Source: Clostridia bacterium (GTDB lineage: Bacteria > Bacillota > Clostridia > Oscillospirales > CAG-272). From it: DNA of 64,000 nucleotides. Position 1 is the first letter of the stretch. Every line of letters starts with the position of its first letter. The notes under the pieces are model-generated. The model was not told the DNA's origin and did not search any database. It saw only the letters and a program-made list of their open reading frames with translations. Positions 57,300-64,000 of the stretch are shown here, piece after piece. The stretch is from positions 4,246 to 68,245 of the forward strand of contig JAFTKN010000027.1 in assembly GCA_017453255.1 (NCBI GenBank), in the 5' to 3' direction. The position numbers were made by a program, and so were the translations under genes.

Positions 57300-57363
57300 C
57301 ATATACCCAGTCAAACCCGATCGGATATACTGTGGATAGCAAAATTCATTGAAAGGAGAAAAT

Positions 57364-58665
57364 ATGGTAAATCCAAGAAAATTAGTGCTTGATTCGCTTA
57401 TAAAGAGCGAAACGGTAGGTAGCTACTCAAACATTGAGATAAATACCACCCTTACAAGAAATCAATTAAGCAATGTGGATTCAAGGCTATATACTCTCCT
57501 TTATTTAGGTACTCTTGAAAAAAAGCTATACCTTGATTATATAATCAAGTCATATTCTAAAATCAAGCTAAGTGACATTGAAATAGATACAAAATGTGCA
57601 TTAAGATTAGGTCTTTATCAGCTAATCTTTTGCGACAAAATACCAGATTATAGTGCAATAGATGAAAGCGTTTCCTTAGCACCTAAAAAATCAAAGGGCT
57701 TTGTTAATGCTATTTTACGCTCATTTTTAAGAGATGAAAAAATCGTAAGGCTACCAAAGGACGAGCTTGAGAGCTTGAGCATAGAAGCGTCAATTCCAAT
57801 GAAGCTTTTATGCCTTTTAATTGATTCCTATGGTAAAAGCGAGGTATTTAATCTTTTAAAATATAACGAAAAAAGCTCACCTCTTTCAATAAGAGTAAAT
57901 ACCCTAAGGGCAACTAAAGAGGAAATATTTGATTATTTATCAAGTAATGGCTATGAGCCAAGCTATTCAAAAATAGCTAAGGACATAATTATTTGCAATA
58001 CACAAATTGGAAAAATAAAGGAATTAATCGACACAGGTAAGGTATTTATTCAGGACGAAAGCTCTAAAATAGCAACTGAGGTTTTTTCAGCTGAGCCAAA
58101 TGAGAAAATATTAGATGCCTGCGCCTGCCCTGGTGGAAAAAGCTTTTCTATCGCTATAGATATGGAAAATAAGGGAGAGCTTTTATCCTGTGATTTGCAC
58201 GAAAGCAAGCTAAGGCTCATTACTAATGGAGCTAAAAGGTTAGGCATTGATATTATCACAGCAAGAGAGCAAAATGCTAAGCTACCTGTCTGTGATTACA
58301 TAGAAAAATTTGATAGGGTGCTTTGTGACGTGCCCTGCTCAGGCTTAGGAATTATCTTTAAAAAGCCTGATATTAAATACAAAAGCATAGAGGATATAAA
58401 AAACCTACCTAAAATACAGTACGAGATATTAAATAACTGCTCAAAATATGTAAAAATAGGTGGCGTTTTAGTATATTCCACCTGCACACTAAATAAGCAG
58501 GAAAACGAAAATAATATTGAAAAATTCTTACAGGAAAATAAGGACTTTGAGCCACTTGATTTTTCAGTAGGTGATATAAAATCAAAGGGGGGAGTGTTTA
58601 CCTTTTTGCCACATAGAGATAAAACAGACGGCTTCTTTGTTGCAAAAATGGTAAGAAAGCAGTAA
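57364..58665 (+). CDS. rsmB: 16S rRNA m5C967 methyltransferase
   Basis: DACACPGGKS, DVPCSG, YSTCT, DGFF. Confidence 0.95.
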   Translation: MVNPRKLVLDSLIKSETVGSYSNIEINTTLTRNQLSNVDSRLYTLLYLGTLEKKLYLDYIIKSYSKIKLSDIEIDTKCALRLGLYQLIFCDKIPDYSAIDESVSLAPKKSKGFVNAILRSFLRDEKIVRLPKDELESLSIEASIPMKLLCLLIDSYGKSEVFNLLKYNEKSSPLSIRVNTLRATKEEIFDYLSSNGYEPSYSKIAKDIIICNTQIGKIKELIDTGKVFIQDESSKIATEVFSAEPNEKILDACACPGGKSFSIAIDMENKGELLSCDLHESKLRLITNGAKRLGIDIITAREQNAKLPVCDYIEKFDRVLCDVPCSGLGIIFKKPDIKYKSIEDIKNLPKIQYEILNNCSKYVKIGGVLVYSTCTLNKQENENNIEKFLQENKDFEPLDFSVGDIKSKGGVFTFLPHRDKTDGFFVAKMVRKQ

Positions 58666-59732
58666 TGGATACACAAGCCTCTAAAATAGATATTCTTTCA
58701 TTAAGCCTTGATGAGCTTAGTGAGAAAATTGTTGAAATTGGTGAGCCAAAATTCAGAGCTAAGCAGATTTTTTCTTGGATAAACAAGGGTATGTTTGGTA
58801 GTGAAATGACAAATATTTCAGTAGCATTACAAAATAAGCTTGAGGGCGTGTTTGAATTTAGGCTTCCTAAGGTTAAAAAAAGATTAGTTTCTAAGCTTGA
58901 CGGAACTATAAAATACCTATTTGAGCTAATAGACGGAGAGCAAATTGAGTCTGTGTTTATGGAATATGAGCATGGTAACACTCTTTGTATTTCCTCACAG
59001 GTTGGCTGTAGAATGGGCTGTAAATTCTGTGCCTCAACCTTAGCTGGTAGAGTCAGGGATTTAACCCCGTCAGAAATGCTTGGTCAGATAATCTCAGCCC
59101 AGAGGGACACAGGAAAAAGAATTTCCAATGTGGTTATGATGGGCATTGGCGAGCCACTTGATAATTACGATAATGTAATTAAGTTTTTAAGGCTCGTAAG
59201 CTCCGAAAACGGACTAAACATAGGCTTAAGGCATATTTCACTTTCAACCTGTGGTCTTGTTGACAAAATTGATATGCTTTCAAATGAGGGCTTACCAATT
59301 ACCTTGTCAATTTCCTTGCACGCCTATGACGATGAGGTTCGCTCACAAATTATGCCTGTGAACAAAAAATATCCAATAGGTGAGCTTTTAAAGGCTTGCG
59401 ACAGATATTTTAACAAGACAGGCAGACGTATTTCCTTTGAATATACGCTAATAGCAGGTAAAAACGATACAAGGGAGGGAGCATTAGCCCTTGCATCGCT
59501 ACTTAAAAAATATTTAAAAAGCTCCCAGCACGTTAATCTGATACCATTAAATGAGGTTTCGGAAACAGGACTAAGAACCTCAAAAAATGTAAATTTATTT
59601 AAAAACACCTTGCTTTCACAGGGCATAAATGCAACAGTCAGACGTAAATTAGGCTCTGATATAAATGCGTCCTGTGGTCAGCTAAGAAGACAAGAGGCAA
59701 TAAAGAAAATTGACAAGGAGGACACTAAATGA
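58665..59732 (+). CDS. rlmN: 23S rRNA m2A2503 methyltransferase (radical SAM)
   Basis: SSQVGCRMGCKFC, MMGIGEP, ASCGQL. Confidence 0.97.
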   Translation: MDTQASKIDILSLSLDELSEKIVEIGEPKFRAKQIFSWINKGMFGSEMTNISVALQNKLEGVFEFRLPKVKKRLVSKLDGTIKYLFELIDGEQIESVFMEYEHGNTLCISSQVGCRMGCKFCASTLAGRVRDLTPSEMLGQIISAQRDTGKRISNVVMMGIGEPLDNYDNVIKFLRLVSSENGLNIGLRHISLSTCGLVDKIDMLSNEGLPITLSISLHAYDDEVRSQIMPVNKKYPIGELLKACDRYFNKTGRRISFEYTLIAGKNDTREGALALASLLKKYLKSSQHVNLIPLNEVSETGLRTSKNVNLFKNTLLSQGINATVRRKLGSDINASCGQLRRQEAIKKIDKEDTK

Positions 59733-60505
59733 TTTGCTCGGCAAACACAGATAAGGGACAAAAGCGTAGCAATAATCAGGACTGCTATGCTGTAAGAAAA
59801 TATACAGAAAAAACCTATTTAGCCGTTGTTTGCGATGGAATGGGTGGTGTTCGTGGTGGTGAGGAGGCTTCACAAATTGCTTGCGAGGCATTTGTTAAAA
59901 CCATTGATAAGTGCATAACCCCATACCTAAAGAACAGACAAAAGCAGATAGGCACATCAGAGATTAAAAGAATGCTCGTTAAGGGCATTGATTTAGCAAA
60001 TGAGCAGGTTTATTTAAAATCAAAGCAAAACCCAGACCATAAGGGAATGGGAACTACCATAGTAGCAGCCTTGATTATAGACAAAACTGCATTTTGCTTA
60101 AATGTAGGGGATAGCCGTCTATACTTAGTTAAGGGCACTAATATAAGACAGGTAACTAAGGACCATTCCTATGTTCAATACCTTATTGATATGGGACAGC
60201 TAACACCTGAGGAGGCAGAAACGTCCTCAAACAAGAATATAATTACAAGAGCAGTAGGAACTGAGGTTTCTGTTGAGCCTGATATTTATCTTGAAAGGCT
60301 TGAGGAAAATAGCTTTATGCTCCTTTGCACCGATGGTCTTACTAATATGGTCGATAATGCAACAATTTGCGACATCGTTTCAGGCGATAAGGCAAACAAG
60401 CAAATTGACCAAATAGAGCTTGACTTAAAGACAAGAAAATTAATTGACACTGCAAATGAAAACGGTGGTACTGATAATATCACAGCAGTGCTTTTAAGGT
60501 TTTAA
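59729..60505 (+). CDS. Stp1/PrpC-family PP2C Ser/Thr phosphatase
   Basis: NQD, VCDGMGG, NVGDSR, CTDGL, GGTDNIT. Confidence 0.95.
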   Translation: MICSANTDKGQKRSNNQDCYAVRKYTEKTYLAVVCDGMGGVRGGEEASQIACEAFVKTIDKCITPYLKNRQKQIGTSEIKRMLVKGIDLANEQVYLKSKQNPDHKGMGTTIVAALIIDKTAFCLNVGDSRLYLVKGTNIRQVTKDHSYVQYLIDMGQLTPEEAETSSNKNIITRAVGTEVSVEPDIYLERLEENSFMLLCTDGLTNMVDNATICDIVSGDKANKQIDQIELDLKTRKLIDTANENGGTDNITAVLLRF

Positions 60506-60517
60506 GGAGGGCATCTT

Positions 60518-61477
60518 ATGGAAAACAAGCACGACAAGTACGAAAAATATAAGAAATTTGAGGGACAGGTGCTCGACGACAGATATGTTATCGAAAAGCT
60601 TATAGGCATTGGTGGTATGGCTGTTGTTTATAGAGCAAGAGATAAGTTCCTTAATAATATGACAGTAGCCATTAAGATGCTAAAGGACGATGCTGCAACC
60701 GATGAGGTTATAGTAAAGCGCTTTAAAAACGAGGGTAGAGCCGAGGGTATGCTTAAGCACCCCAATATTGTTGGCGTTTATGACGTAAACATAAAGGGCG
60801 AATATAAGTATATGGTAATGGAGCACGTTTATGGTATCACCCTAAAGGACTACCTTTCTGCAAAAAATGAGCCATTAAAGTTTGACGAAATAATGAGCTA
60901 TACAATGCAGATTTTGAAGGCTCTTACAAAGGCTCACGAAAACGGAATTATCCATAGAGATATTAAGCCACAAAATGTAATGGTATTCCAAACAGGACAA
61001 ATTAAGCTAATGGATTTCGGTATTGCAAAACTTCCAAATGCTCAGACAATCACCGTTACCGATAAGGCTGTTGGTACTGTTTATTATATGAGTCCAGAGC
61101 AGGCAGGAGGCAAAAAGGTTGATGCAAGAAGTGACCTTTATTCCTTAGGTGCTATGATATATGAGCTTGCAACAGGTCAAACACCATTCAAGGGTGAAAC
61201 ACCATTGCAGGTATTGGTTAAGCACATAAATGAGCCACTTACCCCACCAAGACAATTAAACTCCAGTATTCCAGTAGGACTTGAGCAGATTATAATGTGT
61301 GCAATGAGCAAGGACCCAGCACAAAGATTCCAAAGCGCTAATGAAATGCTCGATTATGCAAAAAGACTTCACAAGAATAAGAAAATCAAATTTGATGAGC
61401 TTCCCTCAAATAGCTTTATGAAGAATTTCATAGGCAGACTAAAGAGAATTTTCGGCTCAAAGAAGAAGGATAAATGA
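60518..61477 (+). CDS. Hanks-type Ser/Thr kinase in the PrkC/PknB position, lacking TM and PASTA domains
   Basis: GIGGMAVVY, VAIK, HRDIKPQN, DFG, GTVYYMSPEQ; only 319 aa. Confidence 0.93.
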   Translation: MENKHDKYEKYKKFEGQVLDDRYVIEKLIGIGGMAVVYRARDKFLNNMTVAIKMLKDDAATDEVIVKRFKNEGRAEGMLKHPNIVGVYDVNIKGEYKYMVMEHVYGITLKDYLSAKNEPLKFDEIMSYTMQILKALTKAHENGIIHRDIKPQNVMVFQTGQIKLMDFGIAKLPNAQTITVTDKAVGTVYYMSPEQAGGKKVDARSDLYSLGAMIYELATGQTPFKGETPLQVLVKHINEPLTPPRQLNSSIPVGLEQIIMCAMSKDPAQRFQSANEMLDYAKRLHKNKKIKFDELPSNSFMKNFIGRLKRIFGSKKKDK

Positions 61478-62409
61478 TTTTAGGAACAGTATTAAAGGGT
61501 GTAGGAGGACTTTTTACAGTCCTTCTCGACTCTGAAATTGATAACGAAAGAGAAATAAGCGTAAGAGGTAGAGGCGCATTCAGACACGAAAAAATCGTGC
61601 TTTTACCTGGTGACAGAGTAGAGCTTGAGAAAAATCAGGACGGTAGCTTTTTCTGCAAAAGAATTTTGGAAAGAAAAAACTCCCTAATCAGACCATCTCT
61701 TGCTAACCTTGACTATATTTTTGTGGTAATCCCCTGTAAAAAGCCAATGCCATCTCTTGAAATAATCGACAAAATGATAGCTATTGCAGAGTTTAATAAA
61801 ATTGAGCCTGTAATTATTATTTCCAAGTCGGATTTAGATGAGGGCTTTGCTGAGGAAATGTACCATATATATAAAAATAGTGGCTTTGACACATTTATAA
61901 CCTCGTCATATTCAAACGAGGGCGTTTGCGATATTTATAACTATATTAAAAAAATAGCTACAGAAAAATCACCTATTTGTGCCTTTGCAGGCGCAAGTGG
62001 AGCAGGCAAAAGCACGCTTATTAATGCCCTTTTCCCAAGCCTCACCCTTGAAACAGGCGAGCTTAGTGAAAAGATTGAGAGGGGAAAAAATACTACAAGA
62101 AAATCGGAGCTTTTTCCACTTGATTCCTTAATAGGCAAGGAATACAATGGCTATCTTGCCGACACCCCTGGATTTTCACTTTTAGATTTTGAACGCTTTG
62201 ACTTCTTTTCCTTAAATGATTTGTTTTATACCTTTAGAGAATTTAGGGAGCTTGAAAATCAATGCAAATTTACAAAATGCTCGCATACTAAGGAGCAGGG
62301 CTGTGTAATTATAGAAAAAATTAAAAACGGCGAAATTGAAAAATCCCGTCACCAAAGCTACATAGCCTTATATGAAATTTTAAAGAAAAAACCAAGCTGG
62401 AAAAAATAA
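61474..62409 (+). CDS. rsgA: Ribosome small subunit-dependent GTPase A
   Basis: SKSD, GASGAGKS, RGKNTTR, DTPGF, CKFTKCSHTKEQGC. Confidence 0.97.
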   Translation: MILGTVLKGVGGLFTVLLDSEIDNEREISVRGRGAFRHEKIVLLPGDRVELEKNQDGSFFCKRILERKNSLIRPSLANLDYIFVVIPCKKPMPSLEIIDKMIAIAEFNKIEPVIIISKSDLDEGFAEEMYHIYKNSGFDTFITSSYSNEGVCDIYNYIKKIATEKSPICAFAGASGAGKSTLINALFPSLTLETGELSEKIERGKNTTRKSELFPLDSLIGKEYNGYLADTPGFSLLDFERFDFFSLNDLFYTFREFRELENQCKFTKCSHTKEQGCVIIEKIKNGEIEKSRHQSYIALYEILKKKPSWKK

Positions 62410-62427
62410 ATGAAGGGAGGGGCAGAT

Positions 62428-62712
62428 GTGAAACGTAAATATAAAGCGTTGATAATTGCAATTTTAATTATAGCTATAGCTATGTCTGCTTTTCTCCCAC
62501 TATTTGATAACGGGCATCACTGCGACCACGAAGGTGACTTAAAATGCACCATTTGTATATTAATAAGTGATATTGGTGAGGCTGTAATTAGCATAAGCTT
62601 AGTTATATTGCTTGTTAAAATAGTTCATTTATTGACCTGTTTAATTAAAGAAAAGCAAGATTTATCAAAGAATAATACCCTTATTAAGCAAAAGGTTAAG
62701 CTTTCCGATTAA
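62428..62712 (+). CDS. Small two-hydrophobic-segment protein with His/CxxC motif (candidate regulatory uORF)
   Basis: GGAGG RBS then GTG; HHCDHEGDLKCTIC; ends TLIKQKVKLSD. Confidence 0.75.
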   Translation: MKRKYKALIIAILIIAIAMSAFLPLFDNGHHCDHEGDLKCTICILISDIGEAVISISLVILLVKIVHLLTCLIKEKQDLSKNNTLIKQKVKLSD

Positions 62713-62745
62713 GAGTATCAATGTAAGATACTAATAATAGGAAAG
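62701..62745 (+). promoter_or_regulatory. Hairpin covering most of the ABC ATPase ribosome-binding site
   Basis: CTTTCC-G-ATTA..AGTATC-aatgtaa-GATACT..TAAT-A-GGAAAG; 3' arm is the purine-rich SD region. Confidence 0.6.
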
Positions 62746-62755
62746 GAACATAACA

Positions 62756-63424
62756 ATGATTGAAATAAAAGGAGTAAAAAAGCAATTTCAAAACGAAACC
62801 GTAATAGAATACAAGGATATGGTATTCGAGGACGGAAAATCATATATGCTCTTAGGAGCAAGTGGCTGTGGCAAGTCCACTCTGCTTAATATAATAGCAG
62901 GAATATTGTCACCAACAAAAGGAAATGTAGTCATAGATGGGGAAAATATGCAAGAAAAAAGCCAACCTCAAAGAGATAAGCTACGAATAAAACAAATCGG
63001 CTACATTTTCCAGGATTTTAAGCTTATAAATGAAATGTCAGTAATTGATAATATAAATATTTTAAGGCTTGAAGGAATTAATACTAAGGACGCACCCGAG
63101 CTACTTAATAAGCTTGGCATATTAGAAAAGAAAAAAAGTAAAATCAAGCATTTGTCAGGTGGACAAAAGCAGAGAGTGGCAATAGCAAGGGCACTTGTAA
63201 AAAAACCACAAATAATTTTAGCAGATGAGCCAACTGGTAACCTTAACTTTACAATAGGTGAGCAGGTTATTAAGGAGCTTGTTGATGTATCAAGGGGTAA
63301 AACACTAATAGCCGTAACTCATGATGACCGACTTGCAAAATACTTCGACTGTGTTGTTGATATGAATGAGATGACAAGTGGTATGCAGGATTTGGTAAGA
63401 GAGGGGGGCTTGAGTAATGATTAA
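62756..63424 (+). CDS. ABC transporter ATP-binding protein (LolD/MacB-like)
   Basis: GASGCGKS, IGYIFQ, LSGGQKQRVAIARA, LADEPTGNL. Confidence 0.95.
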   Translation: MIEIKGVKKQFQNETVIEYKDMVFEDGKSYMLLGASGCGKSTLLNIIAGILSPTKGNVVIDGENMQEKSQPQRDKLRIKQIGYIFQDFKLINEMSVIDNINILRLEGINTKDAPELLNKLGILEKKKSKIKHLSGGQKQRVAIARALVKKPQIILADEPTGNLNFTIGEQVIKELVDVSRGKTLIAVTHDDRLAKYFDCVVDMNEMTSGMQDLVREGGLSND

Positions 63425-64000
63425 GTTTGCCCTTAAAAATATGGCTGTCAAAAAGGTACAGTGCATCTTGATAGTTGTTTCGATAGTCATATCGACATCA
63501 ATCGCCGTGCTTGCATACAACGTGTCAAGTCAGGTTAGTGATGGAATAACCTCGAACGCAGGGTATTATTCTGTTATTATAGGACCAGCAGGCTCAAAAA
63601 CACAGCTTGCGATGAACACAATGTATTTTTCGGACGAGCCACTTGGTACAATTCCTTATTCAGTAGCTATGAATTTGATGCAGGATGGTACAAGAGTAAA
63701 TACAGTTATCCCGTTTGCAATGGCAGACAATTATAATGGCTCTAAGGTTGTAGGAACAACATCGCTATATTTAAAGGATAAGAGCATACAATGTGGTGAA
63801 ATGATGAATGACAGCTCCACTATGCAGGCAGTTGTAGGCTATAATGTAGCAAAAAATAATGGACTCAGCATTGGTGACATAATATATACAAGTCACTCCG
63901 CAACCTCACTCGATACTCACAAAAAGGGAATAACCGTTTGTGGTATTTTAAATCAAAGCTATTCATCCTTCGACAATGTGGTGTTTACACAGGTGCGCAC
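63417..64000 (+). CDS. ABC transporter permease (MacB/FtsX-like), 3'-truncated by window edge
   Basis: Translated by hand: MIKFALKNMAVKKVQCILIVVSIVIS...IIGPAGSKTQLAMNTMYF...TSHSATSLDTH; open to the end of the window. Confidence 0.88.
   Translation, partial: MIKFALKNMAVKKVQCILIVVSIVISTSIAVLAYNVSSQVSDGITSNAGYYSVIIGPAGSKTQLAMNTMYFSDEPLGTIPYSVAMNLMQDGTRVNTVIPFAMADNYNGSKVVGTTSLYLKDKSIQCGEMMNDSSTMQAVVGYNVAKNNGLSIGDIIYTSHSATSLDTHKKGITVCGILNQSYSSFDNVVFTQVR

Follow-up and report, generated by a model that had tools for sequence, protein, structure and literature searches.

A small open reading frame upstream of metal transporter genes in Clostridia is a candidate metal-sensing leader peptide

We analysed a 64,000-nucleotide (nt) stretch of DNA from a Clostridia bacterium (assembly GCA_017453255.1, contig JAFTKN010000027.1, positions 4,246 to 68,245 of the forward strand), called the window below. 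The subject is a small open reading frame (ORF) of 94 codons near its 3′ end, which stands directly in front of the genes of an ATP-binding cassette (ABC) transporter. A first-pass annotation, made from the letters of the window, had read this ORF as a leader peptide that senses metal, stalls the ribosome and so controls the transporter. Judged from sequence comparison, the small ORF is a member of a real, conserved, new and widespread family without annotation. The features of the ORF and of its junction with the ATPase gene are given here one per line.

62415–62422, + strand: Shine-Dalgarno sequence (SD) of the small ORF (GGGAGGGG), read from the sequence, 6 nt upstream of the GTG; strong SDs are found at homologous ORFs too.
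62428–62712, + strand: small ORF by ORF reading, GTG start, 94 amino acids (aa) plus TAA; homologues of 92–99 aa align end to end.
62446–62511, + strand: residues ~7–28, N-terminal hydrophobic helix, signal-anchor or first transmembrane (TM) segment, from the sequence and the structure model.
62515–62556, + strand: residues 30–43, HHCDHEGDLKCTIC, putative Cys/His metal site, with H30, C40 and C43 conserved.
62557–62676, + strand: residues 44–83, mostly hydrophobic spacer of fixed length, poorly conserved, resembling a second TM helix.
62677–62709, + strand: residues 84–94, TLIKQKVKLSD, candidate arrest or termination-stall element, from the conservation of the C-terminal motif.
62710–62712, + strand: TAA stop codon, within the 5′ arm of the hairpin (sequence and RNAfold).
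62701–62745, + strand: SD-masking hairpin predicted by RNAfold, with the last codons and the stop as 5′ arm and GGAAAG as 3′ arm.
62740–62748, + strand: SD region of the ABC ATPase gene (GGAAAGGAA), from the sequence, overlapping GGAAAG.

The strong SD of the small ORF is the basis for reading it as translated. An alternative in-frame ATG at 62410 would give 100 aa and abuts the stop of the preceding gene; the GTG at 62428 is preferred because homologues align from it. From its start the peptide carries VKRKYK, a hydrophobic stretch, GHHCDHEGDLKCTIC, a second long hydrophobic stretch and the C-terminal NTLIKQKVKLSD. By the positive-inside rule, its N-terminus would face the inside. The AlphaFold2 model has two helices, residues 3–26 and 41–82, followed by coil from 83 to 94, with a mean predicted local distance difference test (pLDDT) value of 64 across the last two 10-residue blocks (81–94). 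The tail, modelled as low-pLDDT coil, therefore does not form a folded element by itself. The ORF, its HHCDH-x5-CxxC site, the ...KVKLSD ending and the hairpin over the ATPase SD were all where the first-pass annotation had placed them, as was a short His-containing loop, SHSATSLDTH, in the downstream permease. An anti-sigma factor was considered and ruled out, there being no sigma gene nearby. Prediction of a complex of the small peptide with the ATPase and the permease gave a score of 0.01 (mark 0.32), which we count neither for nor against any reading.

No Pfam family matched the small ORF (hmmscan, E ≤ 1), nor did any NCBIfam family. When 40 family members were scanned at E ≤ 10, PF11162 (DUF2946) was not among the 25 families listed, and at most one member could match it. 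A protein identical over the 94 aa is present in the searched protein collection. A word-index search with the single sequence returned only the small protein itself, and phmmer over 1.84 billion representatives gave five matches; with single-sequence searches nearly empty, profiles were therefore needed to reach further relatives. Six-frame search of 60 related genomes yielded full-length matches at 24–36% identity. Within the genus we analysed 13 loci plus the window, having dropped L012, L016 and L020–L023 as partial matches or for internal stops; in 14 of 14 the ORF is 92–97 aa long, has its own SD and lies directly before the same ATPase gene.

A profile search collected 407 proteins at E ≤ 1. 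Names among the matches listed are 'hypothetical protein', with one transporter label, and none of the 120 listed carries a Pfam domain. Among 125 family proteins that were collected, 121 end in the tail motif described below and one is a 44-aa fragment; in the remaining three the motif precedes TGA and the protein runs on longer, and the W after the motif suggests that the source read this stop codon as Trp. Within the same order the profile matched in 36 of the 401 genomes sampled, spread over 28 of 178 genera, and a broader one matched in 13 of 400 genomes of the class, other orders included. Gut metagenomes commonly contain the family, which has no annotation at all. Decayed or odd copies without the tail were seen at two loci (L076 and L077), and at L076 the ORF runs into a znuC-like gene.

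Conservation is limited to H30, C40-x-x-C43 and the last residues, [LF]-K-V-[KR]-L-x-[DN]-stop. In an alignment of 40 members, mean column identity is 29%; no member departs from the CxxC, and at least 90% keep H30, V90 and L92. All 40 begin with a basic segment that leads into a hydrophobic helix, while the sequences of the helices are barely conserved. The metal site itself has variants in the family, HDCxGExCxxC or a His-rich HxHxHDH...CxxC. The full tail consensus is [TS]-[PL]-[VI]-x-[LF]-K-V-[KR]-L-x-[DN], and the stop follows at once. Over 41 loci, Val at −5 (37/41) is written with all four of its codons, Leu at −3 (39/41) with six, and Lys at −4 (36/41, Arg in four) with both of its own. 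Since synonymous codons vary freely at the conserved residues, the tail is selected as peptide and not as RNA. The stop codon is TGA in 23 loci, TAA in 18 and TAG in none. Proline occurs at most once in the tail, at −10 (21/41), and neither PP nor RAPP is found in these loci; the absence of a RAPP motif, pointed out for the window, extends to the family.

The second fixed feature is distance. From the second Cys of the CxxC to the C-terminus there are 51–56 residues in the 41 loci; 39 of these values were computed, and L005 and L006, which have an earlier CHHC, were set to the aligned CxxC by reading their sequences (value 52). This spacing is kept in proteins with N-termini 10–16 residues longer. 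ORF length is exactly 98 aa in 15 of the 41. At one locus, L045, the spacer is hydrophilic (maximum 19-residue hydropathy −0.31), yet the protein is 98 aa long with tail and SD pairing intact.

At the RNA level, the window places CTTTCC (62701–62706), GAT (62707–62709) and TAA (62710–62712) opposite GGAAAG (62740–62745), ahead of the ATPase ATG at 62756. RNAfold pairs CUUUCC with GGAAAG and adds two inner helices, for −17 kcal/mol. The hairpin has z = −3.58 and was equalled in stability by none of 200 dinucleotide shuffles; its 64-nt core reaches z = −6.06. In the minimum free energy (MFE) structure, three of the five core nucleotides of the ATPase SD are paired, their partners lying 9 to 11 nt before the last base of the stop. 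The case that the hairpin is more than chance is strengthened by relatives, in which the same ORF, tail and SD masking recur. An intrinsic terminator at this position was ruled out, as no U-run lies 3′ of the hairpin, and Rfam gave no match at E ≤ 1 across the hairpin or across the intergenic element of the znuA-type loci described below (16 loci).

Fifteen loci, those of the genus plus L053 from another genus, have the ORF in front of an ATPase and a MacB-type permease gene. The MFE structure pairs the ATPase SD in all 15 of these MacB-type loci, and in 14 of them its partner lies between −11 and +10 nt from the last base of the stop, the exception being L015, which forms two hairpins. Eleven of the 15 hairpins have z ≤ −2.6. 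Two designs are seen. In seven loci, the window included, the anti-SD is made of the Leu-Ser codons and the stop; in seven others it comes directly after the stop. Six loci of the second design have Ser or Thr at −2, where the codons vary and the tail still reads K-L-[ST]-[DN].

These designs bear on the idea that the small ORF is translated only to open the RNA, the peptide having no role and its conservation being a by-product of the RNA constraint. In its favour, the Leu-Ser codons themselves serve as anti-SD in 7 of 15 MacB-type loci. The idea does not account for the free variation of synonymous codons, for a tail that is kept where the anti-SD follows the stop, or for the conservation of H30/CxxC and of the 51–56 aa spacing far from any RNA pairing. 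We consider it improbable.

Outside the genus, the gene that follows is most often another one. A member of the ZnuA family stands there in 24 of 27 loci at the order level and in 9 of 11 at the class level (33/38 together); Pfam confirmed this on three order-level loci, one of them a ZnuA-ZinT fusion. The order-level exceptions are L053 (MacB-type), L032 (cut by the contig end) and L028, followed by another lipoprotein gene of the oligonucleotide/oligosaccharide-binding (OB)-like kind, which is apparently split across two frames; the class-level exceptions are two truncated copies that lack the tail. In the znuA-type loci, intergenic regions measure 46–262 nt and the znuA SD pairs with the stop ±14 nt. 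This pairing reaches a probability of 0.5 or more in 16 of 24 order-level and 7 of 9 class-level loci (23/33 in total). The mean probability over the 24 order-level loci is 0.66, versus 0.26 with the stop window shuffled (40 shuffles each). The same peptide end is thus combined with different downstream genes and RNA layouts, and stem sequences differ from locus to locus: it is the layout that is kept and not the sequence. Because the last codons and the stop form the anti-SD strand or adjoin it within ~10 nt, a ribosome at the end of the ORF must open the structure. That completing translation of the small ORF opens the downstream SD follows directly from the sequences and their predicted folds; that the ribosome lingers there does not.

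The comparative expectations of the first-pass annotation were all borne out. Conservation covers the C-terminal ~11 residues, which without exception run up to the stop, the SD-masking structure recurs in homologues with different stem sequences, and the neighbours are metal transporters, znuA at the order and class levels in the proportions given above and a His-rich MacB-type system in the genus. Its suggestion that small proteins encoded ahead of metal transporters in Clostridia have such C-termini was therefore right.

The znuA-type loci also point to a metal. In 12 of 27 order-level and 4 of 11 class-level loci, the gene directly upstream is of the Fur family. The znuA and Fur-family neighbourhood makes Zn(II) the most likely metal, among the Zn, Cu, Co and Ni that had been listed; the copper of the proteobacterial precedents discussed at the end serves as an analogy and is not the same metal. 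A palindrome, ATTTGCGAAnnATTCGCAAAT, overlaps or follows the −10 element at L029, L036, L038, L042, L050, L051, L025 and L026, in promoters that drive either the Fur-family gene or the small ORF. Palindromes of this form are probably the Zur operator of the order. Allowing up to two mismatches, 19 such sites occur in the window's genome versus 6 for the reversed control.

Many relatives have, in addition, a conserved branched RNA element of ~65 nt in the interval that separates the small ORF from znuA (L025:1795–1929, L029:1759–1891, L030:1372–1500 on the − strand and nine more). An outer helix, ACAAGGG/CCCTTGT, encloses an inner hairpin, GTCTGCC/GGCAGGC, and ATTTTTGCGCCCATTTTT comes next; a second GC-rich hairpin was seen by eye and was not predicted by RNAalifold. 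For 12 loci RNAalifold gave 19 pairs, six with compensatory changes. An exact pattern search found the element once per genome in three of five genomes, always at this locus. The element may act as an attenuator or be riboswitch-like.

In the genus, the small ORF heads a four-gene module whose remaining members are listed here; the last lies on the same contig just beyond the window and is given in the coordinates of locus L003.

62756–63424, + strand: ABC transporter ATP-binding protein, 222 aa (Pfam ABC_tran, E 3.9e-37), 73–78% identical in 11 related loci.
63417–64000, + strand: MacB/FtsX-type permease, 396 aa, running past the window end to a would-be 64607; the full protein (L003:1663–2853) matches MacB_PCD (E 4.5e-9) and FtsX (E 1.6e-8).
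L003:2855–3811: lipoprotein, ~318 aa.

The ATPase gene overlaps the permease gene, and the module of small ORF, ATPase, permease and lipoprotein is intact in 12 of 12 loci (the window and 11 relatives), with different genes after the lipoprotein. In its outer domain the permease has conserved His in a His/Glu-rich loop of variable length, with H200 and H202 invariant; the SHSATSLDTH loop is conserved as well, and T158 and H160 are invariant. A His/Glu/Asp-rich insertion measures ~12 residues in the window protein and more than 60 in L062 (L062:1046–2383), and is reminiscent of His-rich loops in proteins that bind zinc. Invariant in the lipoprotein are SCPFC and a GYMATSSPVDGSF...PYQSCPFCVPNT block with a CxxC, which falls in residues 77–91, where the AlphaFold2 pLDDT is below 50. 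The model as a whole (pLDDT 77) has an OB-fold-like N-terminal domain and a helical C-terminal domain of ~170 residues, for which Foldseek gave no clear structural match. Pfam DUF3299 matches weakly (E 0.066, 13.7 bits for a cut-off of 22, profile positions 39–133 of 139). In the Foldseek search, 4hsp (PA4066, a DUF3299 protein) ranked ninth with E 4.1e-3, a template modelling score of 0.41 on the target and 19% identity, the highest identity in a list where no match reached E 1e-3; sequence searches of the PDB with the lipoprotein gave nothing meaningful. The trio of ATPase, permease and lipoprotein resembles PA4064-PA4066/ZrgBCD by these comparisons, the link through the lipoprotein being suggestive.

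No ZnuA-family gene (PF01297) was found in the window's genome, which is 96.8% complete and has two Fur-family genes elsewhere. With the small-ORF family kept and no ZnuA-family gene there, the MacB-type module is therefore a candidate zinc system, and it may be the genus's substitute for ZnuABC. We also weighed the reading of the small ORF as the precursor of an exported peptide, a bacteriocin or a ribosomally synthesized and post-translationally modified peptide, with the ABC transporter as its exporter or immunity pump. A Cys-containing peptide adjoins an ABC system here, and the best NCBIfam match of the ATPase is TIGR03608 (putative bacteriocin export), sub-threshold at 185 bits versus a cut-off of 254.85. 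The module holds no modification-enzyme or leader-peptidase domain in 12 of 12 loci, however; most relatives precede znuA importers behind a Fur-family gene, and the N-terminus is a membrane anchor and not a leader with a cleavage motif. An exported peptide is very improbable indeed.

Some observations concern the surroundings of the module. The small ORF begins 18 nt past the stop of the preceding gene. Positions 57349–62409 of the window hold what we take, from motifs recognised by eye, to be the conserved rsmB - rlmN - PP2C phosphatase - Ser/Thr kinase - rsgA cluster; the 18-nt gap suggests insertion of the module into a housekeeping operon. A scan for promoters and terminators at the locus gave no convincing promoter before the small ORF and no terminator after it. 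Most modules of the genus (L007, L008, L011, L014, L015, L017, L018 and L019) are preceded by a promoter of the extended −10 type (TGNTATNAT), after which comes an AT-rich near-palindrome (TATATTATATA-like) that is missing from the window's locus and may be the operator of a further regulator. Just upstream of the module, Gut-1 RNA matches of 45.6 and 38.3 bits, below the gathering score of 50, occur at L017:788–999 and L008:1980–2052, and in some relatives a tRNA gene lies there.

From the sequences, we hold it close to an even call that the small ORF is a cis-acting, probably zinc-responsive leader peptide which stalls the ribosome at or near its stop in the manner of CutF/CruR and CliM, though through a proline-free motif unrelated to theirs. 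The tail would slow peptide release or the last elongation steps, and a ribosome dwelling on the stop would hold the downstream SD open, much as happens at termination with C. difficile CliM and with DGMK-stop peptides. The N-terminal helix would target the nascent chain to the membrane, so that during the stall the His/Cys site, 51–56 residues from the stop, would be at or just beyond the translocon. Metal bound there would alter the pull on the nascent chain and with it the length of the stall. Our guess at the polarity follows CruR, for an uptake-type system: metal would relieve the stall and the transporter would be shut down. At the window's locus this translational layer may be the main control.

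A more far-reaching formulation, tentative and somewhat short of even, makes [LF]-K-V-[KR]-L-x-[DN]-stop a new module, free of proline, that arrests termination on clostridial ribosomes and works together with a Cys/His knuckle at a fixed distance of ~55 residues. Extracytoplasmic zinc on the nascent chain would set the dwell at the stop codon, giving a translational zinc sensor that works alongside Zur, stands before at least two transporter types (ZnuABC and ZrgBCD-like MacB) and uses more than one RNA expression platform.

The principal competitor takes the product of the small ORF for a stable membrane protein of two helices, which would bind zinc at the outer face and serve zinc transporters as accessory, sensor or chaperone subunit; the hairpin would be ordinary translational coupling, by which the genes are expressed together, and the conserved cytoplasmic tail a docking strand or a degradation signal. 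We give this account as a whole an appreciable chance, though one well short of even. The two modelled helices and the hydrophobic spacer, present in 40 of 41 loci, are what a stable small membrane protein would have. Its own strong SD and protein-like length agree with this, and hydrophobic and basic residues take turns along the tail, a pattern that would suit a docking strand. CbtB, the small subunit of the CbtAB cobalt transporter, matches 6 of 40 members weakly, below significance (best E 0.012). PA4063/ZrgA, the first gene of an analogous Zur-regulated, MacB-type proteobacterial operon, encodes a genuine metal-binding accessory protein (PMC11481552, PMC8561739). Against a stable protein, the same tail is found with two unrelated transporters, ZnuABC and MacB-type, and transporter-specific docking is therefore unlikely. 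The tail has to run exactly up to the stop, which in most loci is where the anti-SD is; this account requires neither. The length of the spacer is conserved without its sequence, the helices hardly at all, and L045 keeps length, tail and SD pairing in spite of a hydrophilic spacer. A search for longer or fused relatives found none, which is weak evidence.

Further points weigh against the stalling leader peptide. The RNA layout can be explained with no stall at all, by plain coupling through a ribosome that terminates, and the tail, lacking proline, is unlike any characterised arrest motif. The structural evidence is uneven, as z lies between −0.6 and −2.0 for 4 of the 15 MacB-type hairpins and the SD-stop pairing is below 0.5 in 8 of 24 order-level and 2 of 9 class-level znuA-type loci. 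In many znuA-type loci the branched element starts 8–17 nt past the stop, which the leader model leaves unexplained. No palindrome resembling the Zur box (up to two mismatches) is on the window's contig, and this genus may use another operator; with neither Zur box nor clear promoter at the window's ORF, zinc control of this locus is therefore read from its relatives only. No RNA sequencing run was listed as containing the locus, the only runs listed with all of it being two gut-metagenome DNA runs that may be its source. Finally, in contrast to the modelled two-helix hairpin, CutF is described as a secreted protein with a cleavable Sec signal (PMC9973294). The interpretation first proposed is thus partly supported: its comparative predictions all held, but a stable small membrane protein with plain coupling fits much of this evidence too.

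Bacterial zinc uptake is thought to be controlled almost wholly by Zur, a repressor that reads cytoplasmic zinc. If the leader-peptide reading is right, a second, faster layer of control would read zinc at the membrane and act on translation, and nascent-chain metal sensing, as in CutF and CruR, would extend from copper and Proteobacteria to zinc and gut Clostridia. The tail would be a new sequence class among the few proline-free termination-arrest motifs, and would help to understand how release factors are blocked. The MacB-type four-gene module is also flagged as a candidate zinc system, which annotation alone would miss. The string LKVKLS was found in no paper, and among the literature matches listed there is no report on a zinc or znuA leader peptide.

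Set beside known systems, the module of the genus resembles the Zur-regulated PA4063-PA4066 of P. aeruginosa and ZrgABCDE of V. cholerae. They share a separate ATPase and a MacB-type permease, a first gene whose product binds metal (putatively here) and a link to zinc, the likeness to the DUF3299 partner being suggestive only. The first gene there encodes a periplasmic ferredoxin-like protein, whereas here it encodes a 94-aa membrane peptide; the host here is a Gram-positive bacterium, its lipoprotein ends in an additional helical domain and no Zur box was found at the locus. CbtB is likewise a small single-pass membrane protein with metal-ligand residues adjoining a metal transporter, and differs in that its matches to the family are not significant. 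To our knowledge, CbtB has neither a conserved C-terminal tail at the stop nor an SD-masking layout.

The translational logic has counterparts among leader peptides of Gram-positive bacteria. MifM of Bacillus subtilis and CliM of Clostridia likewise have a TM segment at the N-terminus, an arrest element at the C-terminus and a stem-loop that masks the SD until the stalled ribosome opens it. They monitor membrane insertion and not metal, precede yidC, have no Cys/His site and show no sequence similarity to the small ORF. CliM of C. difficile stalls with the stop codon in the A site and with helices in the exit tunnel, and it has no RAPP motif (PMC13183943). Two further peptides of Clostridia, both encoded upstream of secDF, are described as undergoing termination arrest specific to Gram-positive ribosomes: uDF_DGMK-stop (PMC10987492) and LudP (bioRxiv 10.64898/2026.10.26.761930). 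With these the small ORF shares a short, conserved, proline-free C-terminal motif at the stop; the motif itself and the target genes are others, and they have no metal site.

The precedent invoked by the first-pass annotation, CutF of Rhodobacter capsulatus and CruR of Bordetella pertussis, is a real one (PMC9973294, PMC9426467). CutF has a Sec signal, a CxxxC 45 residues from a C-terminal stalling motif and a stem-loop that hides the cutO SD, and copper prolongs its stall (PMC9973294; bioRxiv 10.1101/2025.02.05.636593); CruR combines a CxxC with RAPP at the head of an uptake operon, and copper relieves its arrest, which turns the operon off (PMC9426467). The small ORF resembles both of these DUF2946 proteins in its N-terminal membrane-targeting segment, its Cys/His motif, its conserved C-terminal element and its place at the head of a metal operon. 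It further resembles CutF in the SD-hiding stem-loop and in spacing, 45 aa from motif to stall there being comparable with 51–56 aa here, and CruR in heading an uptake system of a kind that is switched off by metal. The search that defined the CutF family demanded a PP motif within the last 15 residues (PMC9973294), and would therefore not have found a family with a proline-free motif. Unlike CutF and CruR, the small ORF has no DUF2946 match and no proline-rich or RAPP motif; it has a hydrophobic second helix where they have a secreted soluble part, and its candidate stall is at the stop codon. Theirs is a copper-type setting in Proteobacteria and Bacteroidota, whereas the small ORF belongs to Firmicutes and a zinc-type neighbourhood.

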